From Thermoplasmata archaeon (GTDB taxonomy: Archaea > Thermoplasmatota > Thermoplasmata > Lutacidiplasmatales > UBA184): 64,000 nt of DNA. Made by a program: the position numbers and the translations under genes. The stretch lies in assembly GCA_035502475.1 (NCBI GenBank), contig DATJUJ010000021.1, forward strand, positions 5,098 to 69,097, read 5' to 3'. Below, in pieces: positions 38,290 to 51,552 of this stretch. How positions within the stretch are numbered: the stretch's first letter is position 1; each line of letters begins with the position of its first letter. The notes under the pieces were generated by a model that saw only the letters and a list, made by a program, of their open reading frames with translations, ran no database searches and was not told where the DNA came from.

Positions 38290-38547
38290 ATGCGGCCTCG
38301 CTCGAGGGTCGAAGCCCCGCCCCAGGGGATGTTGCGCAAGAACATCACCATCACACCGGAAGAGGAGCAGTTCCTCGCCCGGCACCCGGAGATCAACCAG
38401 AGCGCGCTGTTCCGCCAGATCGTGGAGAGCCTGATGCTCGCGGAGCGCTCGCCCAGCGTCGCCTCGACCCAGCAGGTCCGGCTGGGCAAGGCGGTCTACC
38501 GGTCCGGCGCGATCATGTTCCAGAAGCCGGCCGAGCGTCGCCGGTAG
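38290..38547 (+). CDS. small ribbon-helix-helix (CopG-like) DNA-binding protein; start 38290 or 38329
   Basis: RKNITITPEEEQFLARHPEINQSALFRQIVESLM has the alternating beta strand plus two helices pattern. Confidence 0.6.
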   Translation: MRPRSRVEAPPQGMLRKNITITPEEEQFLARHPEINQSALFRQIVESLMLAERSPSVASTQQVRLGKAVYRSGAIMFQKPAERRR

Positions 38548-39364
38548 GTCGCTCCCTCCGCGGCGCCTCCTGATCCCTCAGTCTCGGGCCGAGGCCCGCG
38601 AGGCTGGGGTGGTGCGCATCCTCCGCCCGGGCGAAGACGATCCCCTGCGCCCCGGGCGTCGCGTCGAGGGCCGCGCGGGCGGAAGCGGGCGTCAGCGTCG
38701 CGAGCGCGTGCCGGGAGACGATGTGACCGAACGCCCAGCGCCGGCGCAGCGTGAGGTCGGTGAAGTGCGGGGCATAGTGGCCGCCCCCGATCGCGACGGC
38801 GACCCGGTCGCTCTCGGTCGGTTCGATCCTCGGGATCACCTCCGCGAGCAGGTCGACCGCGGCCGGCGGAGGAGCGTCCGCGGTCCCGTACCCGATCTCC
38901 ACGAAGAACGCGGGAAGTTCGAGGTAGGGCCCGTGGTGCGTCGCCTCGTAGGTCGCCGCCCATCCGATCCCGCCCGCCCGCTCCGCGAGCGCGCGCAACG
39001 TCGCGGCCATCCGAGCCGGGTCGCTCGGGTCCCAGGCGCCGGGCCGCCCTCCGACGTCGGCGTCGGGACCCGGGTTACCCAGGGGATGAACCGTGAGACA
39101 GGGGACGTTCTGTTCGCTCCGGTGGATGGACGGGAAGACGAGGGTCGGACGGAGGGCTTGGAGGGAGGCCGGCAGAAGGGCGTCGAGCCGCTCGTCCTGG
39201 ATATGGAGGCGCGGACGCCTCAGCAGCAACGCGGACCGGCCGAGGCGTCGGATCGGGGCTCCCTCCACGTGATCTTCGGTCGCCGGCGGCGTGCCCCAAC
39301 GGGAGACGACGGCCGCGGCCACGGGGTCGGGCTCGGAGACGACGACCAGGTACTGGTCGCTCAC
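38513..39364 (-). CDS. dtdA: D-aminoacyl-tRNA deacylase, archaeal DTD2 type
   Basis: FPSIHRS, LTVHPLGN, YEATHHGP, FVEIG, GGGHYAP, FGHI. Confidence 0.9.
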   Translation of the reverse strand: MSDQYLVVVSEPDPVAAAVVSRWGTPPATEDHVEGAPIRRLGRSALLLRRPRLHIQDERLDALLPASLQALRPTLVFPSIHRSEQNVPCLTVHPLGNPGPDADVGGRPGAWDPSDPARMAATLRALAERAGGIGWAATYEATHHGPYLELPAFFVEIGYGTADAPPPAAVDLLAEVIPRIEPTESDRVAVAIGGGHYAPHFTDLTLRRRWAFGHIVSRHALATLTPASARAALDATPGAQGIVFARAEDAHHPSLAGLGPRLRDQEAPRRERPTGDARPASGT

Positions 39365-40162: not shown

Positions 40163-43100
40163 TCACGGTTCGGTCGGGGGCCGACGGAACGGCCACAGCG
40201 CACTCGTGGCCGGGGCGGGCGCCGGAGTGGCGGCGGCCGCCTCGGTCGGCGGCACCGCGCCCTCCTCCTGCAGCTTCCGGAGGGCTTCCCGCGCCTTGGC
40301 GAGCGCCTGCGCATAGTCCTGGTCGCGCAGCCGGATCGACTCGGAGAGGAGCTGGCGCGCCTCGGTGGTGTCGAGGCGTCGCTCGTGGGCCCGGGCGAGC
40401 GCGGCGTCGATGAGGTAGTGGAGGTTCATGAGCTCGCGATGGAGCGACTTCCTCAGCGCGAGATCCTCCTCGGCCGCGAGCAGCTGCCGCGCCGCCTCGA
40501 GGAGGTGCGCGTTCCGCTGGAGCTCCTCGATCTCGCGGAGGCGGTCGCGGATCGGCCCCACGCTGACGTGGAGGCCCTCCTGGGCGAACGTCACCTCGCT
40601 CTGGAGCTCCTTCGCCCGTCGCTCGAACGGATCCTGGACCGCGGGCTTGAGCGCCTCGAGCGCCTTCGCGAAGAGGCGGTCGGCCTCGTCGAGGCGGAAC
40701 GCGTCGAGCGCGCTCTTCGCCTCGCTGAACGTCTGCATCATCGGCGTCGTGTCGACGCCGAGCCGCTCCCCGACCCAGAGGCGATCCTTCACGTCGCCCG
40801 CGGTCGCCTCGATCGCCTCGCGCCGCTGCCGCCGGGCGAGGTCGAGCTCCGAGCGCACGAGGGCCAGGGCGGCGCCATACTCCTTGCGCTCCCGCAGGGC
40901 CCGGACGTCCTGCTGGACCGCCTCGCGGCGCTGCCCTTCGGCGGGGCTGGACGGCCGGCCCCGTTCGAACTCGGTGACGACCTCGCGCCACCGGCCGTCG
41001 AGGACGGCCTCGAAGACCCGTCGGCTCGAGGACTCGGCGCGCTCGACCGCTTCCCGGACCTGGGCCCACTCGCGGGCGCGGAGCGCGGCCTCGGCCTGGC
41101 CGAGGACCGCTTCGACGGGGTCGATCTCGGGACCGAGTCCTTCCTTGCGGGCCGCCTCGAGGAGTCCCCGGAGCTCGCCGAGCGGCCGGGCGAACAGGCG
41201 CTCGATCGCCCATCGGCCCCGTTCGACCGCCTCACGGGCCGCCCGCACGGCCACGGAGTACTGACCCTTCTCGACCGCCTCGCGGGCCTCGGCGAACCGG
41301 GCGCCCGCCTCGATCACCTCGGCGCCCATCGAGGCCGCCTCGGCGATCTGCGCCTCGGCCGACGCGAGCGCGTCGCGCGCGCGGCGGTGGCCCTCGCGCG
41401 CGGCCTGCAGCGTCTCGGACGCGGCGATCGCCCGCTCGAGCACTTCGGGATACTGGCGCTGCTGGAAGGCGGTCCGCGCCGCGCCGAACTCGTCCTGGGC
41501 GGTGGTCGCGACCACGCCGTCGGCCCGGGCCCGGGCGATCGATCGCTCGGTCGCCTCGAGGGACCCTTCCGCGAGCCGCCGCTGGAGATCGGCGCGCTCG
41601 AGCTCGGACTCGCTGCGGCCCGCCAGCTGGAGCGCCTCGACCGGGCGACCCTCGTCGAGCGCCATCCGGGCCTGGTGGAGGAGGTTCTCGGCGACGGCCG
41701 TCTCCCCGCCCTCGCGGTGGAGGCGCGTCACCGTCGCCTGGAAGTGGGCGAGCGTCTTCGAGACGTGCTGGTAGGTGACCTGCGAGAACTCCCGCTCGAG
41801 GGGGCCCCCGATCTCGATCACGCGGGCGTACTGCCGCGCCGCGAGCGCCTGCTCGACCCGCTCCATCTGGGCGCGCAGCCCGCCGATGTCGACGTGGAGG
41901 AGGTCGGCCTCCGCGAGCGCCTCGCGGGCGCGCTTCGCGATCCGTTCGGCGTGCTCCACGAACCCGCGGGTCGAGATGAACTCGGTGCGGGCCGTGTCGA
42001 GGAGGCTCGCCGCGCCCGCGGGCACGGGCAGCGCGACGCGGCGGCGGGCCTCGCTGAGCGGACCGAGGATCTTCTCCACGTCCACCCCGGCGGCCCGGGC
42101 GATGTCGAGGTCCCGTTCGAGCCCCCGCAGGTTCTCGTCCAGGATCGGTCGGAGGAAGCCGATCAGCTCCTCATGCAGGATGCGGGCGCCGGTGACCGTC
42201 GCGTCGACCGGGGCGGTCGCGAGTTCCGTCTTGAGCGACTCGAACCGGGCGGCGAACGGCTCCATCGGGGCCGACAGCCGACGGCCGTCCTCGAGGAGAC
42301 GACCCAAGTCGCCCATCAGCCGTTCGACCTCGAGATGCGCTTGAGCGTCCCGGAGCCGGAGCGCGATGGCGTCGATCTGCGTGCGCGCGCCGTCGAGGTC
42401 CAGGGCCTGGAAGGCGAGCCGCACGTTCCGCAGCGGCTCGTAGTACGGGCCCGGGTCGCCGCCCGCGTCGCGCAGGCGCGCCAACAGATCCTGCGCCTGG
42501 TTGATCCCTTCGAGCACGGTCTGCGCGTTCGCCCGGGTCCGAACCGCCTGCTCCTCGAGCCGCGAGGAGAGCTTGTACGCCTCGGGGTATCGGCTCGCGC
42601 GCGCCGCGGCCTGCGCCTCATCGAGCTGCACGCGGAACTTCGCGAGATCGAGGCCCATCGTCTCGAGCTCCACGAGCGACAGCTTCGCGTGCGAGACGGC
42701 CTCCTCGCTGCGCAGGAGCTGCTGCTGCTGGGCGCGCGTCCGAATCTCCTGCGAGGCCCGGGACGCCTTCACGAAGTCGCCCATGTTGAAGATCTGCTGC
42801 ACCTCGTCGATCTGGCGCTGGATCTCGTCGCTCGCGCCGCCCATCGACTCCAAGATGCGCCCCTCGTCCTCGAGCATCTCCACGAGGGCGGAGGCGTGCG
42901 TCGCGAAGACCGAGGCGAAGTCCCGCTCGGCGCGCTTCAGGCTGTCGATCGCCCCGGGGAGGTCGCCCTTGACGCGCAGCGTCACGTCCGCGTCCGCGAG
43001 GGACCGCCGCACCGGCGCCGTGAGCGTCTCGTCGGGGATGTCGGCGAACCCCTGCTCCATCTCCTCGATCCGGCGGGCCATGTAGGGGGCCGCGGACTTG

Positions 43101-44701
43101 CGGAGCTCGACCTCGGCCCGGGCGATCTCTTCGGCTCCGCCGGCGAAGTCCCCCTTGTCGAGCAACTGGCGCGCCGCGCCCAGCGCCCGCTCGGCCTCGT
43201 CGGGCAGGAACCCGCGCTCGCGAGCGTACTCCTTCACCTTGTCGAGGGCGCCCCAGCGCTGGACGAAGAACTGGAACGCCTCGCGGCCGACCTGCAGGAC
43301 GAGCTCGTGGAGCGCGGACCGGGCGGCGCCCACGTCCGCGTGCTCGACGAGGCCGCGGGCCTTGGCGATCGCCGCATCGAACGGCTCGGACGAGAAGCCC
43401 GTGAGCCGGAAGCGCGCCAGCAGCTCGTCGAGCGCGGTGAGCTCGTCCTGGACGGTCTCCAGGTCCTCGGTCAGCTGGGCGACCCGGTCGAGCGCTTCCT
43501 GGCTCGCCGCGAGCGCTTCGGAGTAGATCTTGAGCCGCAGGGCCTCGCGGGCCCGGTTCATCGCCGCGAAGACATCACTCGGGTCCCGGCCGAGCCGCCG
43601 GGCCTCGGTGATGCGCGGACGGACCTCGTCGAGGAGGCCCGCGACGACCGCGACGATCGGCTCCTCCGCGACCCGCCGGGTCTCGGAGACGAGCGAGGCG
43701 ATCTCGAGCGGTGGAAGCGTCGGGAGGCGGGCGATCGCTTCCTCGACCGCCTGCTTCGCGGGGCCGGCGTCGACCCCGAACTCGGGGGTCACCGTGAGGG
43801 TCGTGCGCAGGGCTTCCAGTACCTGGCCGGCGCGGTCCCGCAGCGTCTCGCCGACTTCGGTGTTCGCGACCTCGAGCGCGCTCACCGTCTCAGGCCACTG
43901 CTCGGGATCCGCCTCGTTGTCGGCGCGGAGGGCGGCCTCGAGCTTCGACGGGGAGACCGCGTGCTCCTTCGCCGCCTCGACGAGCTTCTCGGCGGTCTCC
44001 CGCGCCCGCTGCCGGCGCTGGACGGCCTCCGGGAGCTCGGTGCGCAGCAGATGGAGGATGGCGTCGTTCGCCTCGGCGAGCCGTCCCTCCTCGGCCGGCG
44101 CGCTGGCGGCATCCAGCCGACGGACGAATGCCTGCAGGGCCTCGCCCGAGAGACCGGCCCAGCGCGCGACGTCCTGGGCTCGGTCCCGGGCCTTTCGGAC
44201 GTACTCCGCCTCGGCTTTCTTGAGCCCCTCCTCGACGGCGACGAGCCGGCCGACGGTGTCGGTCCAGGCGGCGTCGGCCGCGGGGTGGCCCAGCGCCTCG
44301 AGCTCGGTCCGGAGCTCGGGCGGCACGAGCACGCCGCTGCCGGAGAGCCGGTCGATGGAGGCGATGGTCTTCTTGCGTCGGTCCTCGATCGTGGTCGGCA
44401 CCGACTTCGCGAGGTAGTCGAGGAGGGCCTTTGCCTCGGTCTCGACCGAGTCCCAGTCGGACCGTCGCGCGAGGTCCCGGACCCGTTGCGCCCGGTCGCC
44501 CGCCTCGGGCGGCAGGATGCCGAGCCGCTCGAGGAGCGCGACCCGCTCCTCAGCCTCCTTCTGGATCTGCTCGCCGGTCTGGCGCTTCTTCTTGAGCGCC
44601 TCGGCCTTTTCCTGGAGGATCCGCGTCAGCCGGGACGACGGCAGGGACCCTATGCCTCCCGGACCCGACGTGCTCCCGTCCTCCCTAAACCCGTCCCCCA
44701 C
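40163..44701 (-). CDS. very large all-helical repeat protein (about 60-70 aa repeats)
   Basis: 1512 aa; recurring A..xG[VL]D....L..A...L..g.Y..A...A pattern; no TM or nucleotide-binding motif; TATA-like TTATTAA near 44751. Confidence 0.8.
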   Translation of the reverse strand: MGDGFREDGSTSGPGGIGSLPSSRLTRILQEKAEALKKKRQTGEQIQKEAEERVALLERLGILPPEAGDRAQRVRDLARRSDWDSVETEAKALLDYLAKSVPTTIEDRRKKTIASIDRLSGSGVLVPPELRTELEALGHPAADAAWTDTVGRLVAVEEGLKKAEAEYVRKARDRAQDVARWAGLSGEALQAFVRRLDAASAPAEEGRLAEANDAILHLLRTELPEAVQRRQRARETAEKLVEAAKEHAVSPSKLEAALRADNEADPEQWPETVSALEVANTEVGETLRDRAGQVLEALRTTLTVTPEFGVDAGPAKQAVEEAIARLPTLPPLEIASLVSETRRVAEEPIVAVVAGLLDEVRPRITEARRLGRDPSDVFAAMNRAREALRLKIYSEALAASQEALDRVAQLTEDLETVQDELTALDELLARFRLTGFSSEPFDAAIAKARGLVEHADVGAARSALHELVLQVGREAFQFFVQRWGALDKVKEYARERGFLPDEAERALGAARQLLDKGDFAGGAEEIARAEVELRKSAAPYMARRIEEMEQGFADIPDETLTAPVRRSLADADVTLRVKGDLPGAIDSLKRAERDFASVFATHASALVEMLEDEGRILESMGGASDEIQRQIDEVQQIFNMGDFVKASRASQEIRTRAQQQQLLRSEEAVSHAKLSLVELETMGLDLAKFRVQLDEAQAAARASRYPEAYKLSSRLEEQAVRTRANAQTVLEGINQAQDLLARLRDAGGDPGPYYEPLRNVRLAFQALDLDGARTQIDAIALRLRDAQAHLEVERLMGDLGRLLEDGRRLSAPMEPFAARFESLKTELATAPVDATVTGARILHEELIGFLRPILDENLRGLERDLDIARAAGVDVEKILGPLSEARRRVALPVPAGAASLLDTARTEFISTRGFVEHAERIAKRAREALAEADLLHVDIGGLRAQMERVEQALAARQYARVIEIGGPLEREFSQVTYQHVSKTLAHFQATVTRLHREGGETAVAENLLHQARMALDEGRPVEALQLAGRSESELERADLQRRLAEGSLEATERSIARARADGVVATTAQDEFGAARTAFQQRQYPEVLERAIAASETLQAAREGHRRARDALASAEAQIAEAASMGAEVIEAGARFAEAREAVEKGQYSVAVRAAREAVERGRWAIERLFARPLGELRGLLEAARKEGLGPEIDPVEAVLGQAEAALRAREWAQVREAVERAESSSRRVFEAVLDGRWREVVTEFERGRPSSPAEGQRREAVQQDVRALRERKEYGAALALVRSELDLARRQRREAIEATAGDVKDRLWVGERLGVDTTPMMQTFSEAKSALDAFRLDEADRLFAKALEALKPAVQDPFERRAKELQSEVTFAQEGLHVSVGPIRDRLREIEELQRNAHLLEAARQLLAAEEDLALRKSLHRELMNLHYLIDAALARAHERRLDTTEARQLLSESIRLRDQDYAQALAKAREALRKLQEEGAVPPTEAAAATPAPAPATSALWPFRRPPTEP

Positions 44702-44808: not shown

Positions 44809-45195
44809 CTACGCCCGGGAGATCTGCCGCCGACCCATGGCATCGAGGTACTGGACCTCGCCGCCCGGGGTCAGTTGGCCCTTGAGGGCGGGGTCCAGCG
44901 GCAAGGAGAACGTCTCGTACGTCTCGAGGTCCATCAGCTGGACCTCGGCGTCCGTGAGCGACAGCACCTGGGCCTGGCGCTTCCCGATCATCGGCACCTG
45001 GACCTTGTGCTTCACGGGGAAGACGACGCTCCGCTTCGAGCCGTCGAAGATCCCCACCGCGTCGATCCGGGCCTTCGCTTCGCCGTGCTTCCCGGGTTTG
45101 GACGTCTGAATGCTCAGGATGCGGCACGGTTCCTCGTCGATCAGCATGTACCGGCCCTCCTTCAGTTCGCGGACCTCCTGCTGCGTCCACGCCAT
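44809..45195 (-). CDS. eif5a: translation factor aIF-5A
   Basis: 128 aa; hypusine-site motif [13 protein letters not shown]. Confidence 0.97.
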
Positions 45196-45344
45196 CGGGG
45201 ATACCTCGGAGGCTCGGGGAGTGTCGGGCTCGGATAACGGTTGCTGCGACCGCGGCGGCGCGCGCGCGGGAGGGCCGCACCGAAGGGGCAGGTTTATTCT
45301 CGCGCGACCGCATCTCCGGACCTCGACGCCCGCGTCGGGACCTC

Positions 45345-48300
45345 ATGGTCGACCTCTCCGAGACGTACGACCCGGCCGCTTGCGAGCGCGACGCGCAGTC
45401 GCTCTGGGCCGGTCGGAGGTTCCGCGCGCCCGACGGGACCGTCGGGGCCGGTGAGGGACCGCGCGTCTGGCAGTTCGAGGGCACGTTCGCGCCGGGCGAT
45501 CGCCCGGAGCTCGTCGCCCAGCGGGCCGTCGCCGCCGACGTCGACGCCCGCTACCTCGCGATCGCGGGACGCCGGGCGGTGGGGACCCTCCGGGGCGAGA
45601 CGTTCCGGGGCGTGAACCCGTCGCCGGAGTTCGGATCCGTGCTCGCGTCGCTGGGCATCTGGGTCGGCGGCTCCGGCGGCTTGCCGTGGGACGGGGACGA
45701 TCGGCACGACGGGGTCCAGCGCATCGTCTCGAATCTCGCGAAGGCGGGGATCTTCGTCCTGCACGACGGGCCGCTGAGGGTCTGCCCGAATTGCGCCGCC
45801 CCCCGGTCGCCCGGCCGTCTCGTGTACCGGGACGAACTGGGGCCCACGTACCTCGTGCGGTTCGCCGTGACGATCCGCGAGCGCGAGGCCCACGCGCTCG
45901 CGTGGGTGGACGCGCCCTGGCGCGTGCTGGGCACGAGCGCCCTATTGGTCCGACCGGACGCGCTGTACGTGCTCGCCCGGTACCGCCGGAAGGACGCGGA
46001 AGAGTACGTCGTCACCTCGCTCTCGTCCCTCGCGCGGCTCGAAGCGTGGATCCCCGGGGCGGAGTTCGAGGTGATCGACCAGTTCCCCGGGCGGGAGCTC
46101 CAGTCCCTGCCGTACGCCTACCCGCTGCGCCACGAGTTCCCGATGGGAGGGACGCTCGCGGCCCCCGCCGGCACGTTCCAGGGGACGACCGAGGTGAGCG
46201 ACACCGGCACCGGCATCGTGCCGCTGGTCCCGGGACACGGCGCGACCGACGCGCCGATCGCGGAGAAGCTGGGCATCCCGGGCTGGCCGCTCGTGACGCT
46301 GCGCGGTCGGATGGACATCCTCCTGCTGCACAAGTACTCGGGCCTCGACCTGAGGACCGCGGACGAGTTCGTCATCCGGGACCTCGTGGAGAGCGGGGCG
46401 ATCTTCGCCGAGCTCAAGGTCCGTCGCGGGGTCCCGCACTGCGCGATCTGCGGGACGGCGACCGTCTGGCTGCCGTGCCGGACCTGGTGCCTCGAACCGG
46501 GGCGTCTCCCTCCGCTGCTGGCGCGCGAGTACGCGCGGCTCCTACCCACCGCCCCCCGCCTCTCGCAGATCGAGGTGGCGGCGTGGCCGGTCAGCGAGTC
46601 GACCACGACGCGCGAACCGGAGGGCATCACGCTCCGCGAGTGCAATCTCTGCGAACGGCTCGCTCCCCCCGACGCCCCGCCCGTCTGCCCGTGCGGCGGG
46701 CGGACGAAGCCGGTCTCGCGGCACCTGCTCCCTTCGATCGGAGGCGCGATCGCCGGGTGGGCGCGCCGCAATCCGCTGCCGCCGTCCGACGCGATCCGGC
46801 TCTATCTCGGGGACCGTCGGCGCGCGCCCAAGCTGGTCCACCACCTGACGGCCATCGCGGGCCTCGACGGGCCGGTCGGAGAGATCGGGCTCACCCTGCT
46901 GCCCACGACCTCCGCGGAGGACCTGACCGGGCTGCTGAGCCAGTTCGGGGCCGACGCGGTCCGCGCCGCCCTCCTGCGCACCGAAGGGCTGGAGTCGCCT
47001 TCGGCCACGCTCCCCGAGCGATGCGCGGAGGAGCGCCGGCGCTTGGAGCGCTGGTGGCGTCAGGCTCGCCGCGTGCTCCAGGCCTGCGATCCCGCCATGC
47101 TGGCGGCGTTCGCCGGCCCCATGGCCGCTTCCCTGGACGGACTGGAAACGCTCGACCGGGCGTTCGTCGCGCGCTGGGAGCGCGTCCGACTCCGGGCGCT
47201 CGCGGAATTCGACCGATGGTCCGCCACCCACGCGTTCCGCGAGGTCACCCGGTTCCTCGAGACCGATCTGCCGTTCTACCTGGATCTCGTGAAAGGCCGC
47301 CTCGCGAGCCCCGGGTCCCCGCCCACCAAGCGGGCCGCGCTTCGGACGCTCGTGCACGTCCTGCGCGGTTCGACCGTGCTGCTCGCCCCGATCGTGCCGC
47401 ACACGGCCGAGGCGATCCACCGCGTGATCGTCCCCGACCGTTCGAGCCTGTTCGAGGAACCCCCGGTCGCGGTCGACCGCTCCCTGCTCGCCGACGAGAC
47501 GGCCCGGGCGTGGGAGCGCTGGCGTTCGAGCGTGCGCGCCGTGCGTCGATTCCTCGTCCGGCGGGGCCTTGCGCGGGACACGATCCTGCCCAAGGTCGTG
47601 CTCGTGCTGCCGAACGAGGAGGAGGCCGGGCGCTACCGCGGCGAGCTCCCCGTCCTTCGGGCCCTGTTGGGCGCGTCGGAGGTGGAGATCGCTTCGCCGC
47701 AGCGTCCGTGGGCCGGTCGACGCCGCGAGCTGCGGCCGGTCGACTCCGAGATCCAGCGCGTCTATCCGCAGTACGCCTCCCAGATGGTCGCGCTGCTCCG
47801 TCGCATGCCGCCCCGGCGAGCCCAGGCTTCGGTCAACGGAGATCTGTCCGTCGTGATCGGGAGCAACTCGTACCGCATCGCCCCGGAGATGGTGGGCTAC
47901 GTCGACCTCCTGCCCGACCGGGTCGTGCCCGCCCCCTGGGGGCTCGGGGAGATGTACATCGAGCTGCCGGCCGATGCGGGAGCGGGGGCCGCGAACGTCC
48001 CGCCGCTCTCCCCCGACGCGTTCTGGCTCGTCCGGCGGCTCGCGCGCCGGCTGGCCCGGGCCCCGCCGGAGCCCGAGGGGCGTAAGCGCGTCGCGATCGT
48101 CTTCGCGGCCGATCCGCTCGCCTCCGAGCTGCTGCAGAGCCGGGGTCCGATCGCCCGGTACCTGGACCTCGAAGAGCTGCGCGTCGTCACGGCCGTGGAG
48201 GAGGTGGCCCCGGCCGGGCGGAGCCGGGGCCGCACGCGTACCGGGGCCCGCTGGTGGTTCGACGTGCCGGGCGCGCCCGCGGGCCGCCGGCCCGAGAAGC

Positions 48301-50486
48301 ACCGGGCTCCGCGGCCGCGCGCGCTTCGAGTCCCGGTGGGCGGCGCCGCGATCGGGGCGCCGCTCGAGGACTTCGCGAGCGAAGAGAAGATCGCCGAGGG
48401 CGAGGCGATCCGCTCCCTCGGTCAGGAGCTGGACTCGTTGCTGGGGGTGCCGCTGCTCGGGCCGTCCAAGGTGGCCGAGGCCTGGGATGTGGGACTTCGG
48501 AGCTTGAGCCAGTACGCCGACGCGCCGTTCGAGACGCTGGTCGCCCTGCCGGGCTTCGGTCGACCGGTCGCGGAGGCGCTGCGGCGCAGTCTCGGGCGAG
48601 AGGTGCCCGAGCGTCCGGGCCGTCCCGCCCGACCGCCGCGGCCCGTAGTTCGCGTGCCGACCACCGTCCCGTCCGAGGAGGTGCTTTCCATGCCCGATAC
48701 GCCGCGCGAAGCTGAACCCACCCCCGCGCCCGTCGGAGCGGACTCGGCCGCGCACGTGCTGCCGGTGGCCGACTCCGGGCCGCCCCCGGCCCCCGAGCCC
48801 TCGCCGGCGGAGGCGGACGCCTCCGCTCGATCGGATCAGGAAGTGCCCTCCGGGCCGGCGCCGCCGCCTCCCGAGAGCGTTCCGACCGACACCGGAGCGA
48901 CGCTGGAGCTACCCGGCCTGCCCGAGGCCACCCCGATCGAATCCGCCCCCGACGCTCCCGAACCAGCAGCCGAGTCGCCTTCCCCGGAGCCAACCCCGTC
49001 GGCCCCCGACGCCGCTCCGGGTCCGGAACCGAGTCCGTCGCCGCCCGAGTCACCCCCGCCGACTCCTCTGGATCCGGAACCCTTGGCCGCCGACGCCGCT
49101 CCCTCCTCGAGCGAACCCTCGGCGGGCGCCACGACACCTGTGGCCCACGACGAGTGGGCGGGGTCCGGCCCGTCACTTCCCCCGGCAGACGCCCTCCCCC
49201 AGAGCACCCCGTCCCAGGAGGACGTTCCCGAGCGCTCCGCCGACGTCTCCGCGGCATCCGCCTCCCCCGAGCCGGCACCGACGGCCCCAGCATCCAACAC
49301 CGAGCTGGAACCCGTCTCCCCCGAGCTGACTCCGGCGCCTCAGGCACCCGGCCCCGAGGCGGAACCCGCCCTCCTCGACGCCTCGGGTGAACCGGGCCCG
49401 CCGACGGTGCCCTCGGAGAGCATCGAGCCATCGTCCGTGCCGGAAGGGCCCGAACCTGTCCCGACCGATCTGCCGGAACCGGAACCCCCGATACCGCCCG
49501 TGGCCGAGTTGGGGCCACCGAGCCCGGAGACGTCGCTCGGCCCAACCGCCGATCCGTCGCCCGAAGGCCAGGAGATCGGGCGGTCCGGGCCCGAGGGTCC
49601 GCCGGGCGACGCGATGAGGCCGGAGCCCGAGCCCCGAACCGAGACCGGCACGCCCGAAGCGCCGGGATCCGGAGCCATGACCGAGGCTGAGGCCCCCGGC
49701 CCGTCGGAGTCTCCGGTCGCCACGACCTCAGAGTTGGAACCCGAGGCCCCGTCCTCGGCCGGACCTCCGGCCTCTCCCGGTCCGGGGGCCGAGATGGCCG
49801 CGCCGGTCAACCCCCCAGAGGAGGCCGCGATCCCCCCGGCCCCGGAACCTCCCGACGAGCCGACGGTCCCGGACCTTGCCCCGACCCTGCCGGCGGTCCC
49901 AGCGCCGGCCTTCCCCGCTGCCGAGCCTCCGGTCGCGCCCCAGCCGACCGCTCTCCCTCCACCGCCCACCCCGCCGGAGCCCCCGATCGCGCCCCCGGCT
50001 CTCGCGCCGTCGCCCGCGGGGGGTATCGAGATCGATGTCGGCAAGGCGATCGTCCCCTCGCTGCAGCCGTTCCTCGAAGCGACCGCCGCGGGCCATCGCG
50101 GGGTCTGCCTCGTTCGGGAGTCCCCCGAGCGTCTCCGGGCGCACATCGGGAGTCGGCCCGTCGACATCTACTGGCTGTCGAACCTGGGCCGGGGCCTCTC
50201 GCTGAAGCCCAGCGACCTCGAGGGGATCGGCGCGTTCTGGGAGCGCTCGCTGGCCGAGGACCGGGTCACGGCCTTTTACCTCGAGGGGATCGAATACCTC
50301 GTCCGACTGCACGGGATCGACCGGGTGCTGGATCGGTTGGTCGCCTTCGACGCGTCCGCGCGGGCCCACGAGGCGCGGGTCTGGTTGCACCTGAATCCCG
50401 ATCTCATCCCCGCCCCGGATCTCGAGCGGATCCGGGGTACGCTTCGAGGAACCGGGGCCGGTAGCCCTCCCGGCGCCCCCAACTAG
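45345..50486 (+). CDS. IleRS-like pseudo-synthetase fused to HhH repeats, a Pro/Glu/Ala-rich linker and a C-terminal DUF835-like domain
   Basis: Collinear IleRS elements (LGIWV, CPNC, CP1 WVDAPW and GTGIVPLVPGHGATD, PHCAIC, FGADAVR, LAPIVPHTAE) with no HIGH or KMSKS; LLGVPLLGP/LVALPGFG HhH; C-terminal CLVRESP..YWLS..PSDLE..LEGIEYLV. Confidence 0.8.
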   Translation: MVDLSETYDPAACERDAQSLWAGRRFRAPDGTVGAGEGPRVWQFEGTFAPGDRPELVAQRAVAADVDARYLAIAGRRAVGTLRGETFRGVNPSPEFGSVLASLGIWVGGSGGLPWDGDDRHDGVQRIVSNLAKAGIFVLHDGPLRVCPNCAAPRSPGRLVYRDELGPTYLVRFAVTIREREAHALAWVDAPWRVLGTSALLVRPDALYVLARYRRKDAEEYVVTSLSSLARLEAWIPGAEFEVIDQFPGRELQSLPYAYPLRHEFPMGGTLAAPAGTFQGTTEVSDTGTGIVPLVPGHGATDAPIAEKLGIPGWPLVTLRGRMDILLLHKYSGLDLRTADEFVIRDLVESGAIFAELKVRRGVPHCAICGTATVWLPCRTWCLEPGRLPPLLAREYARLLPTAPRLSQIEVAAWPVSESTTTREPEGITLRECNLCERLAPPDAPPVCPCGGRTKPVSRHLLPSIGGAIAGWARRNPLPPSDAIRLYLGDRRRAPKLVHHLTAIAGLDGPVGEIGLTLLPTTSAEDLTGLLSQFGADAVRAALLRTEGLESPSATLPERCAEERRRLERWWRQARRVLQACDPAMLAAFAGPMAASLDGLETLDRAFVARWERVRLRALAEFDRWSATHAFREVTRFLETDLPFYLDLVKGRLASPGSPPTKRAALRTLVHVLRGSTVLLAPIVPHTAEAIHRVIVPDRSSLFEEPPVAVDRSLLADETARAWERWRSSVRAVRRFLVRRGLARDTILPKVVLVLPNEEEAGRYRGELPVLRALLGASEVEIASPQRPWAGRRRELRPVDSEIQRVYPQYASQMVALLRRMPPRRAQASVNGDLSVVIGSNSYRIAPEMVGYVDLLPDRVVPAPWGLGEMYIELPADAGAGAANVPPLSPDAFWLVRRLARRLARAPPEPEGRKRVAIVFAADPLASELLQSRGPIARYLDLEELRVVTAVEEVAPAGRSRGRTRTGARWWFDVPGAPAGRRPEKHRAPRPRALRVPVGGAAIGAPLEDFASEEKIAEGEAIRSLGQELDSLLGVPLLGPSKVAEAWDVGLRSLSQYADAPFETLVALPGFGRPVAEALRRSLGREVPERPGRPARPPRPVVRVPTTVPSEEVLSMPDTPREAEPTPAPVGADSAAHVLPVADSGPPPAPEPSPAEADASARSDQEVPSGPAPPPPESVPTDTGATLELPGLPEATPIESAPDAPEPAAESPSPEPTPSAPDAAPGPEPSPSPPESPPPTPLDPEPLAADAAPSSSEPSAGATTPVAHDEWAGSGPSLPPADALPQSTPSQEDVPERSADVSAASASPEPAPTAPASNTELEPVSPELTPAPQAPGPEAEPALLDASGEPGPPTVPSESIEPSSVPEGPEPVPTDLPEPEPPIPPVAELGPPSPETSLGPTADPSPEGQEIGRSGPEGPPGDAMRPEPEPRTETGTPEAPGSGAMTEAEAPGPSESPVATTSELEPEAPSSAGPPASPGPGAEMAAPVNPPEEAAIPPAPEPPDEPTVPDLAPTLPAVPAPAFPAAEPPVAPQPTALPPPPTPPEPPIAPPALAPSPAGGIEIDVGKAIVPSLQPFLEATAAGHRGVCLVRESPERLRAHIGSRPVDIYWLSNLGRGLSLKPSDLEGIGAFWERSLAEDRVTAFYLEGIEYLVRLHGIDRVLDRLVAFDASARAHEARVWLHLNPDLIPAPDLERIRGTLRGTGAGSPPGAPN

Positions 50487-50542: not shown

Positions 50543-51337
50543 ATGTCGGGCGGGCGTTCCCCCGGGCGCGGAGTGGCTCTCCTCGGAATCTGCGCCCTCG
50601 CCTTCGTGCTGCTGGTGCCTTCCACGACCTGGGCCGCCCCTGCCTCGCCGGCGGCTTCCCCGGGATCGACCGGCGCCGCCCAACCGGCGGCGTCCGTGCC
50701 GAGCGTCACCTGGAACGGGGCGAACGTCAACGGCGCCAACTCCTCTTCGAGCGCGTTCACGGTCACGTTCAACGAGGCGATCAACGTCCTGTTCTCCTGG
50801 GACCCGTCGCTCTACCCCAACGTCAACGACGCGCGGCTCCAGATGATCTACTTCGGATTCCCCGTCTCGACGCGGGACGTCGCCCCACCCGCGGGCACTC
50901 CCTTGCAGCCGTCGTCCTCCGTCGCGCTCAACTGGACGGTCGGGGCGATCCAGTACGTCTTCGAGGGGACGTTCGGGATCACGGCGAGCCTGATCGCGAA
51001 CGGCTCGACGCTCTGGAGCGAGAGCTTCTACGTGCGCCTCGTCGCGCCGTTCTCCGTCTTCGCGGCCGCGCCGCTGGTGCTGATCATCCTCGGGATCTAC
51101 GAAGTGTACGCGCTCGCCCGGTCGGGCCGCCAAGCCGGGCTCCAGCGCCGGAAGAAGAGCCCGCCGCCGACGACGGCCACGCCCTCGGCCCCCGCGGGCG
51201 CTGCGCCGACCGAGCCCGGGCCGCCCGCCGGGGCGCCGCCCGCCCCCCCACCCGCGGCGCCCGCACCGGCCCCGCCCCCACCGCCCGCAAGCGAGCCCCC
51301 CGCGGGTGAGCCGCCTACGGAGGGAGGCACGTCGTGA
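50543..51337 (+). CDS. exported single-pass membrane protein with a Pro-rich cytoplasmic tail
   Basis: Signal peptide, beta-rich ectodomain with N-x-S/T sequons, TM near residue 180, APPPPP-rich tail. Confidence 0.7.
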   Translation: MSGGRSPGRGVALLGICALAFVLLVPSTTWAAPASPAASPGSTGAAQPAASVPSVTWNGANVNGANSSSSAFTVTFNEAINVLFSWDPSLYPNVNDARLQMIYFGFPVSTRDVAPPAGTPLQPSSSVALNWTVGAIQYVFEGTFGITASLIANGSTLWSESFYVRLVAPFSVFAAAPLVLIILGIYEVYALARSGRQAGLQRRKKSPPPTTATPSAPAGAAPTEPGPPAGAPPAPPPAAPAPAPPPPPASEPPAGEPPTEGGTS

Positions 51338-51552
51338 GCGCGACCTCGACCGGGGCCAGCTGCGGCGTCGTCCTGGGCATCGTCGTGGTCCTGTTGCTCC
51401 AGCAGTTCGGCTACCTCGACCTCACGAACCTCACGAACGCGCTGATCGACCTGGGCCTCGGGATCGTCGTCGGCGGCGTCCTGGGCGGGGTCATCGGCTG
51501 GGCCCTCGGGAAGCGCTACCTCAGGACCCACCCGGACGACGCCCCCGCGTAG
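51334..51552 (+). CDS. small two-TM membrane protein
   Basis: 72 aa, GTGA overlap with the upstream gene, GGAGG SD, two Gly-rich hydrophobic helices. Confidence 0.65.
   Translation: MSATSTGASCGVVLGIVVVLLLQQFGYLDLTNLTNALIDLGLGIVVGGVLGGVIGWALGKRYLRTHPDDAPA

Follow-up and report, generated by a model that had tools for sequence, protein, structure and literature searches.

The locus described here raises a simple question – what does a protein do that follows the isoleucyl-tRNA synthetases (IleRS) domain by domain, but has lost the motifs by which they work? The gene, here called pseudo-IleRS, lies in a stretch of 64,000 nucleotides from a soil archaeon of the Thermoplasmata (the window; contig DATJUJ010000021.1 of GenBank assembly GCA_035502475.1). 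It is an unbroken open reading frame (ORF) with an ATG start at 45345–50486 on the + strand, and both the ORF and its full-length homologues mark it as a complete coding sequence for a product of 1713 amino acids. The product consists of an IleRS-like body, a helix-hairpin-helix domain (HhH), a long linker and a C-terminal DUF835 domain of the inactivated KaiC (iKaiC) kind. A preliminary description, made from the sequence alone, had proposed a catalytically dead paralogue of IleRS, and the protein is one: a canonical ileS gene is present in the same genome, the catalytic motifs are gone, and the sequence is under purifying selection. Its best-supported origin, from sequence comparison, is an IleRS that already carried the tail.

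The IleRS-like body

The NCBIfam ileS model (TIGR00392) scores the window protein at 112.5 bits, against an equivalog cut-off of 621.4 bits, and matches it in two stretches, the CP1 domain and the anticodon-binding region. Pfam detects Anticodon_1 (PF08264) at residues 604–736 (1.7e-12). An AlphaFold2 (AF2) model of residues 1–1010, computed from an alignment of 60 family members over which all counts of invariant residues below were also taken, had a pLDDT of 86.9 and a pTM of 0.80. In a Foldseek search the top matches of this model were the type-2 IleRS structures 8c9d and 8c8v (Priestia megaterium IleRS2; E 4e-46, TM 0.64), aligned over the whole length; yeast IleRS was also matched, while ValRS (4e-27) and LeuRS (ca. 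1e-20) ranked behind. A family profile searched against the sequences of the PDB ranked the synthetases in the same way. The preliminary description had followed the IleRS order from residue 1 to about 880. The order is as described, but the fold continues to about residue 980 in the AF2 and Foldseek alignments. The protein shares with type-2 IleRS (8c8v/8c9d, and the yeast IleRS-tRNA(Ile) complex 8wnd) the fold, both zinc knuckles, CP1, a helical anticodon-binding domain and a C-terminal tRNA-binding domain. It differs from them in having 16% identity, no HIGH or KMSKS, ca. 100 fewer Rossmann residues, altered editing residues and ca. 730 additional amino acids of tail.

The losses are concentrated in the Rossmann fold. 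A remnant of the first half (residues 1–92; 45345–45620, + strand) is recognizable from motif alignment and as a strand-helix-strand unit in the AF2 model. The HIGH site reads EGTFAPGDRPELVAQ, with GDRPELVAQ aligned opposite the PHLGH/IHLGT of working enzymes, and the histidine is absent in every family member examined. The GWDCHGLP block downstream of this site has been deleted. The second half, placed by motif alignments at residues 481–550 (46785–46994, + strand), is ca. 100 residues shorter than in the IleRS of the same genome, and compared with that enzyme the motifs DWxISRQRYWG, DVWxDS and DQTRGWF are lost or unrecognizable. The KMSKS loop before FGADAVR is deleted throughout the family. 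All of the residues quoted in the preliminary description for this region are present, and the loss of both motifs that it reported extends to the whole family. As judged from these alignments, the protein should have no capacity to activate isoleucine by the class I mechanism.

Eight cysteines forming two zinc knuckles are invariant. The first knuckle is made of the CPNC (C147/C150; 45783–45794, + strand) and PHCAIC (C366/C369; 46434–46451, + strand) noted earlier, and the second consists of C433, C436, C448 and C450 (46641–46694, + strand). CP1, the editing-type domain (residues 159–385; 45819–46499, + strand), was delimited by motif alignments, conservation, substitution rates and a profile match. 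It is the best conserved domain of the protein – 42% of its columns are at least 90% conserved, against 21–27% elsewhere. Even so, the editing motifs are changed. The Thr-rich WTTTPW has become WVDAPW (residues 187–192), in which D189 is new and invariant. In GTGIVPLVPGHGATD the editing histidine of GTGxVH is replaced by proline, while D302 is retained. This residue is at the position of the conserved aspartate of the IleRS editing motif, which anchors the amino group, and it is invariant; both the altered Thr-rich motif and the preserved final Asp of GHGxxD had been noticed in the preliminary description. Two CP1 motifs, YPLRHEFPMGG and GWPLxTPxG, are peculiar to the pseudo-IleRS family. Apart from the aspartate, the canonical editing residues are missing.

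The helical anticodon-binding domain (residues 551–740; 46995–47564, + strand) includes the Anticodon_1 match, is aligned with residues 526–782 of IleRS in the PDB profile match, and has a net charge of +10. It is followed by the C-terminal junction and tRNA-binding domains of IleRS (residues 741–980; 47565–48284, + strand), which were located by alignment of the AF2 model with 8c8v, a structure matched over the whole length of the model and with a fully resolved C-terminal tRNA-binding domain. Both domains are basic, and the body overall is mildly so. Scaled to the divergence between working enzymes, the retention index was highest in the C-terminal domains (0.75), followed by the anticodon-binding domain (0.67) and CP1 (0.66), and lowest in the Rossmann halves (0.45–0.52), which suggests that the parts that would face tRNA have been retained best.

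Distribution and selection

The GC content of the window is 70–78%, and long open frames arise by chance on both strands. The length of the frame is therefore no proof of a gene by itself, since long spurious ORFs are common at such GC; it is the homology backing the frame that makes 45345–50486 a real gene. Its N-terminal methionine is near-invariant in the family.

On contig C16 of the source genome (1.56 Mb, 81% complete, 37 contigs) is a canonical ileS, which retains PHLGH and KMSKS and scores 759.8 bits on TIGR00392. The check on this point proposed in the preliminary description thus had a clear outcome, and the window copy is not the sole IleRS of its genome. An IleRS scoring over the TIGR00392 cut-off was likewise found in each of 21 further genomes. 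In the source genome, at its 81% completeness, Aragorn found a tRNA-Ile(GAU) and one CAU tRNA.

A database search with residues 1–1000 found at least 120 full-length homologues of 1400–1880 amino acids and 48–64% identity, nearly all of which carry PF08264 and PF05763 (DUF835). Where the entries bear a name, it is usually 'class I tRNA ligase family protein' or 'DUF835 domain-containing protein', and these come from metagenome-assembled genomes (MAGs) of Thermoplasmata. A scan with one genome per species found 97 relatives with the gene, every one a soil or peat MAG of this class, among them UBA184, UBA61 and Candidatus Lutacidiplasma silvani. The order of these relatives is Lutacidiplasmatales (PMC9287336). 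The same architecture in at least 120 protein clusters and 97 species-level genomes, on contigs of up to 2.3 Mb, rules out an assembly chimera. Neither of the findings that the preliminary description had named as fatal, a sole IleRS or a chimeric fusion absent from relatives, was made.

In a scan of 401 genomes of the class, 44 of the 60 that belong to the same family had the gene. Their genera are g1, g16 and g20, and four other genera of the family do not have it; none of the 341 genomes outside the family carries pseudo-IleRS at E ≤ 1e-50. The architecture, which the preliminary description had suggested surveying across Thermoplasmata, is thus conserved in ca. 100 species but not spread through the class – it belongs to three genera of one family-level lineage. 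Frames of ca. 990 amino acids in the neighboring family f2, considered as a possible distant paralogue, were plain IleRS with HIGH and KMSKS. One genome of the genus (G363) appears to have two full-length copies, G363:C58:1353–4349 (55% identity to the query) and G363:C20:70555–73551 (51%), which could be due to duplication or to a mixed bin.

The ratio of non-synonymous to synonymous substitution (dN/dS) was estimated by the Nei-Gojobori method for six independent pairs. It was 0.11–0.18 for the IleRS-like body, 0.06–0.10 for CP1 (the lowest range), 0.14–0.29 for the HhH and 0.06–0.12 for DUF835, compared with ca. 0.53 for the linker. Ca. 100 positions are invariant in the family. The folded domains are under strong purifying selection, and the earlier suggestion that an intact 5-kb ORF speaks against pseudogene decay is borne out by these ratios, by the invariant positions and by conservation in ca. 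100 species.

The HhH-linker-DUF835 tail

The (HhH)2 domain (residues ca. 1025–1110; 48417–48674, + strand) is in the place where a tandem HhH had been noted (ca. 48430–48600). HHH_5 matches residues 1031–1083 with 17.6–21.9 bits, under the cut-off of 27 bits, yet a family profile matches the N-terminal extension of haloarchaeal eL32 (1.7e-7), PolX and domain 5 of Hel308. By BLASTP it is 30% identical to the HhH of one tailed IleRS (E 1e-5).

An acidic, Pro-rich linker of low complexity (residues ca. 1125–1560; 48717–50024, + strand), distinguished by its composition, its net charge of −68 and its high dN/dS, separates the HhH from DUF835. The preliminary description was right about a Pro-rich tether of low complexity; its length is ca. 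440–457 amino acids rather than ca. 470. Proline makes up 29% of it, D+E 17% and K+R 2%. Across the family the linker varies from 140 to 631 amino acids (median 404), while its composition is much the same (P 26%, D+E 17%, K+R 3%; median net charge −58).

The C-terminal domain (50025–50450, + strand) was expected to be DUF835-like from the preliminary description, and Pfam, AF2 and Foldseek agree on this. PF05763 matches residues 1582–1690 with 37.8 bits against a cut-off of 33.1 (43.4 in a six-frame search). The AF2 model of the domain has a pLDDT of 92.2, and Foldseek aligned it with FlaH/ArlH (4yds) and KaiC at TM 0.56–0.62. Walker A (GxxxxGK[ST]) is absent from the family consensus of the domain, where 'VGxS...' is found between beta1 and alpha1. 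The model and the missing motif indicate a KaiC/RecA-like fold that has been inactivated. This agrees with the published label of DUF835, 'iKaiC', under which it appears as an inactivated KaiC among the output domains of archaeal signaling proteins (PMC5847659, citing Makarova et al. 2017).

DUF835 is otherwise rare in the genus of the window, with 1–2 genes per genome. The sole other DUF835 protein of the source genome (contig C20:~10600–11533, locus L099) has ca. 230 amino acids, an N-terminal helix and DUF835, and BLASTP found no significant similarity between its domain and that of the window protein. Two sister genera without pseudo-IleRS (g15 and g19) have 6–17 DUF835 matches per genome, many of them in frames of ca. 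1000 amino acids. One such frame (L163, G415:C65) combines AAA_16 with an embedded DUF835 and tetratricopeptide repeats, as in a STAND-like NTPase.

Probable descent from a tailed IleRS

There are two types of IleRS in the class. The plain type A, which includes the canonical enzyme of the source genome, has ca. 1000 amino acids and the motifs PTANGxPHIGH, GWDCHGLP and KMSKS. Type B has PYTTGxIHLGT, GFDMHGLP, APGHGPED and xMSKS, and is usually tailed: four of the five intact copies sampled end in HhH and/or zinc ribbons followed by DUF835, the enzyme of G035 being tailless. In three genomes (G031, G032 and G037) a tailed type B, with intact HxGT and xMSKS, is the only IleRS. DUF835 was detected on this sole IleRS in G032 (1e-36) and G037 (1e-28); the G031 locus ends early in DUF835, where the domain was read in the raw sequence, and HHH_5 and the zinc ribbon were scored. 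The order IleRS-HhH-DUF835 was read in loci L123, L131, L146, L161 and L162.

A database search with the tail of one of these sole type-B enzymes returned 231 protein clusters, and the best 120 of these 231 all combine PF00133, PF08264, PF19302 and PF05763. Those with names among the best 120 are mostly annotated as isoleucine--tRNA ligase, from Thermoplasmata, Methanomassiliicoccales and 'Methanobacteriota'. Among the 109 tailed clusters of at least 1200 amino acids, ca. 84 keep xM(S/H)KS, 93 keep WTTTPW and 88 keep DQTRGWF; about 80% have intact motifs. The intact tailed enzymes of Thermoplasmatota are like the window protein in having a class Ia body, a PF19302-type C-terminal domain, HhH and DUF835 in the same order. 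They differ from it in keeping HxG(T/Q), xM(S/H)KS, WTTTPW, GxVH and DQTRGWF and in scoring over 900 bits on the ileS model. The tails differ too – the window protein has no zinc ribbons, and in their place has the Pro-rich acidic linker.

In every sampled genome where type A and a tailed type B occur together, the tailed copy is degenerate: five of five have lost KMSKS, and five of five the editing histidine, which is replaced by F, Y, P, M or A. On TIGR00392 these copies score 747 bits (G038), 705 (G025), 463 (G039), 334 (G040) and 307 (G026), and the window protein, at 112 bits, is the extreme end of this series. In one genome (G033) the decay is apparently reversed: an intact tailed type B scores 980 bits, and it is the second, type-A-like copy that has KISRA for KMSKS, has WTATPW and has lost the editing histidine. 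Among tailed homologues of at least 1600 amino acids (P0147–P0222), 12 of 17 lack KMSKS/HIGH, compared with ca. 20% of the whole set. The long tails of these proteins are rich in acidic residues (D+E 20–30%) but not in proline, and catalytic death in several lineages seems to be accompanied by a longer acidic tether.

The DUF835 of the window protein is 29–34% identical to the tails of intact type B (E 1e-13 to 2e-16), and the body, like type B, has PGHG and xSWA and lacks one residue before GTG. In the phylogenetic tree the members of the pseudo-family form a monophyletic group (100/100) with a very long stem, and the type A clade excludes it (100/100). The best tree unites it with type B, but with weak support (70/52). 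The approximately unbiased (AU) test rejected recent duplication of the type-A IleRS found in the same lineage (p = 0.0027). The homology of the tails, the shared type-B indels and motifs, and the AU test together make a tailed type-B IleRS the best-supported ancestor. The type-A tree unites the three genera with the gene in one clade (100/100), which fits a single origin or retention, followed by losses. The preliminary description had proposed a repurposed scaffold tethered to DUF835. The dead scaffold stands, but the fusion is not new – these comparisons indicate that the HhH-DUF835 tail is ancestral, and that catalysis was lost in the tailed enzyme once a plain IleRS was available.

Proposed function and alternatives

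The tailed copy persists under selection after losing both aminoacylation and editing, so its second function needs neither. The best single argument for such a function is twofold: the working enzyme bears the same tail in other lineages, and the tailed copy stays once catalysis has moved to another gene. We propose that the window protein is a non-catalytic descendant of a tailed IleRS-(HhH)2-iKaiC enzyme, kept for a second job of the body together with the tail, and put the probability of this at roughly 55%. The plain type-A IleRS on contig C16 would do the charging in this lineage. The tailed copy would have lost ATP and aminoacyl-adenylate chemistry together with half of its Rossmann fold and the HIGH and KMSKS motifs, and editing with the canonical residues. 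Its anticodon-binding and C-terminal domains, aided by the HhH, may dock tRNA(Ile) or a translation-linked RNA, and the remodelled CP1 pocket, with D302 kept, would be the only remaining place for the 3' end of a tRNA. The flexible acidic linker would join this body to the iKaiC domain, which could report or localize binding through protein-protein contacts, probably with KaiC-type ATPases. The most likely role, as far as sequence and fold can suggest one, is tRNA or translation-linked binding coupled to protein contacts of iKaiC, as a sensor or a scaffold.

Several observations weigh against this proposal. No KaiC-like ATPase is adjacent to the gene – there are 8 such loci over the Pfam cut-off in the genome, and the nearest is ca. 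46 kb away, with none in the operon. The neighborhood of the gene is conserved within a single family-level lineage, where the synteny may be inherited. That the tailed copy is dead where a type A is present is a rule that rests on ca. 10 sampled genomes outside the family. The AU test does not reject placing the pseudo-family beside all of type A (p = 0.10), the branches being long. Finally, pseudo-IleRS is missing from eight genomes of its genus and from four genera of the family, so it is dispensable.

The three roles that the preliminary description offered for the protein were a sensor of tRNA charging, an anchor and a trans-editing factor. A sensor or an anchor is what we infer here; trans-editing is unlikely, and the least likely of the three, since the Thr-rich motif and the editing histidine are gone both here and in other degenerate tailed copies. 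A related alternative is that the remodelled CP1 is a new enzyme, either a trans-acting aminoacyl-tRNA deacylase or a hydrolase or transferase for another substrate, with the rest of the protein serving to target it. CP1 has the lowest dN/dS of the domains (0.06–0.10) and the highest share of invariant residues, with an invariant D302 and a new invariant D189 inside the former Thr-rich motif, and a gene for D-aminoacyl-tRNA deacylase is found 6 kb upstream, possibly by coincidence. However, TTT of the Thr-rich motif has become VDA, no catalytic constellation was identified in CP1, and the editing histidine is lost here (as Pro) and in every independently degenerating tailed copy. Because this loss recurs independently, it points to relaxed editing rather than to a new active site, and we consider a CP1 enzyme very unlikely. 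Still further from the data is a functionless relic whose frame is open only through the rarity of stops at 73% GC. Long spurious ORFs are indeed common in the window, and one in four genomes of the family does without the gene. Yet a dN/dS of 0.06–0.18 on the folded domains in six independent pairs, ca. 100 invariant residues that include the eight zinc-ligand cysteines, confident AF2 folds of body and DUF835, and an intact gene in 97 species-level genomes effectively refute decay, leaving it extremely improbable.

A pure scaffold or anchor is harder to set aside, though we regard it as somewhat unlikely. The tail would anciently have placed IleRS in an assembly – multi-synthetase, ribosome-proximal, or a hexameric ring like those of RecA and KaiC – and the dead copy would be a structural subunit that senses no state of tRNA. 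A housekeeping enzyme bears the tail in many lineages, for which assembly or localization is as good a fit as signaling, and the HhH resembles the N-terminal extension of haloarchaeal eL32. The gene is also always found beside aIF5A and a giant coiled-coil protein, and the 8 genomes of the genus without pseudo-IleRS have no coiled-coil gene either. This joint absence may however be one deletion event, and the coiled-coil protein occurs in genera and families without pseudo-IleRS. Nor would CP1 be expected to be the most constrained domain of a scaffold, unless it is the interface.

The proposed second job of body and tail can be extended into a bolder reading. Thermoplasmatota would wire isoleucyl-tRNA metabolism into KaiC-type signaling through the iKaiC tail. 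Where a second, plain IleRS was gained, in Lutacidiplasmatales and independently elsewhere, the tailed copy would have turned into a dedicated non-catalytic reader of the occupancy or charging of tRNA(Ile). This is quite unlikely on present evidence. If true, the protein would be a functional analogue of GCN2 and a candidate sensor of amino-acid starvation in a domain of life with none known.

Relation to known proteins

GCN2 is the eukaryotic kinase of eIF2-alpha, and its catalytically inactive HisRS-like domain binds uncharged tRNA. The resemblance of the window protein to it is one of analogy, not homology: a dead synthetase-like module and a signaling module are in one chain, and a working synthetase is also present. 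The modules themselves are unlike – a class II HisRS-like domain and an active kinase output in GCN2, a class Ia IleRS-like body and an inactivated KaiC/RecA-type domain here, where tRNA binding is a prediction. To our knowledge, neither GCN2 nor a stringent response of the RelA/SpoT type exists in archaea, and it is an open question how they monitor amino acids or the charging of tRNA.

Among archaeal proteins, the iKaiC signaling proteins (PMC5847659) resemble the window protein: DUF835 is C-terminal to a putative input module, folds like KaiC/FlaH and lacks Walker A. In the window protein a whole pseudo-synthetase is in the place of input, not a receiver (REC) or PAS domain or a membrane sensor, and the disordered tether is very long. 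The trans-editing factors AlaX, YbaK/ProX and DTD are a poor comparison, as the window protein has no intact editing site and the CP1 fold is unrelated to theirs.

In full-text searches of the literature on DUF835, iKaiC and Lutacidiplasmatales, no account of a synthetase-DUF835 fusion or of a tailed IleRS came up, and the Lutacidiplasmatales paper (PMC9287336) does not mention a pseudo-IleRS gene. The architecture is already in public databases under generic names, where tailed IleRS is known as database entries only. Across a whole class, an essential synthetase bears a KaiC-type signaling domain, and the tailed copies document a graded decay from enzyme to pseudoenzyme, from 747 to 112 bits on the ileS model. 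A tailed copy that has lost its chemistry while body and tail are still selected, as in the sampled lineages with a plain IleRS, is a natural separation of function, and a protein unable to charge tRNA is a clean handle for tests of tRNA binding and KaiC partners, free of catalytic interference. Pseudo-IleRS adds a class Ia case to the short list of pseudo-aminoacyl-tRNA synthetases; with its kinship to these and to iKaiC-linked signaling proteins, it should be of interest to specialists in both synthetases and archaeal signaling.

Genomic neighborhood

Pseudo-IleRS and the gene for aIF5A (44809–45195, − strand; Pfam IF5A-like_N, 7.7e-16) are divergent and share an intergenic region of 149 nucleotides. 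A candidate TATA-like box, TTTATT, was read from the sequence 47 nucleotides 5' of the ATG (45293–45298, + strand). The divergent aIF5A adjoins pseudo-IleRS in all of the 73 loci with enough flank, and beyond it, in 58 of 58 loci, is a gene for an all-alpha, coiled-coil-like protein (1512 amino acids at 40163–44701, − strand, in the window). This order is kept even in members that are only 38–40% identical.

The giant coiled-coil protein is 40–72% identical within the family and has weaker relatives (18–34%) in other genera and families. As noted above, it is present in genera and families without pseudo-IleRS and is lacking, together with pseudo-IleRS, in 8 genomes of the genus, and these comparisons suggest that its gene is older than the association with pseudo-IleRS. 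Its orthologues in five genomes of sister genera (G104, G153, G301, G415 and G053) each contain one in-frame TGA or TAG, which could be a sequencing error, pseudogenization or recoding.

Downstream of pseudo-IleRS are two genes on the + strand with a 4-nt overlap. The first (50543–51337) encodes a protein of ca. 264 amino acids with a signal peptide, a globular domain, a C-terminal transmembrane segment and a Pro-rich tail, and the second (51334–51546) encodes a protein of ca. 70 amino acids with two transmembrane segments. They are present in 32 and 29 of 48 loci. Neither of these membrane proteins, nor the giant coiled-coil protein, has a match in Pfam or NCBIfam. A TAGATAT box at ca. 50509 may be a promoter of their own for the downstream pair. 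The archaeal D-aminoacyl-tRNA deacylase gene upstream of pseudo-IleRS (PF04414, 2.1e-44; 38513–39364, − strand) is beside a tRNA-Glu gene, and its proximity is probably coincidental.

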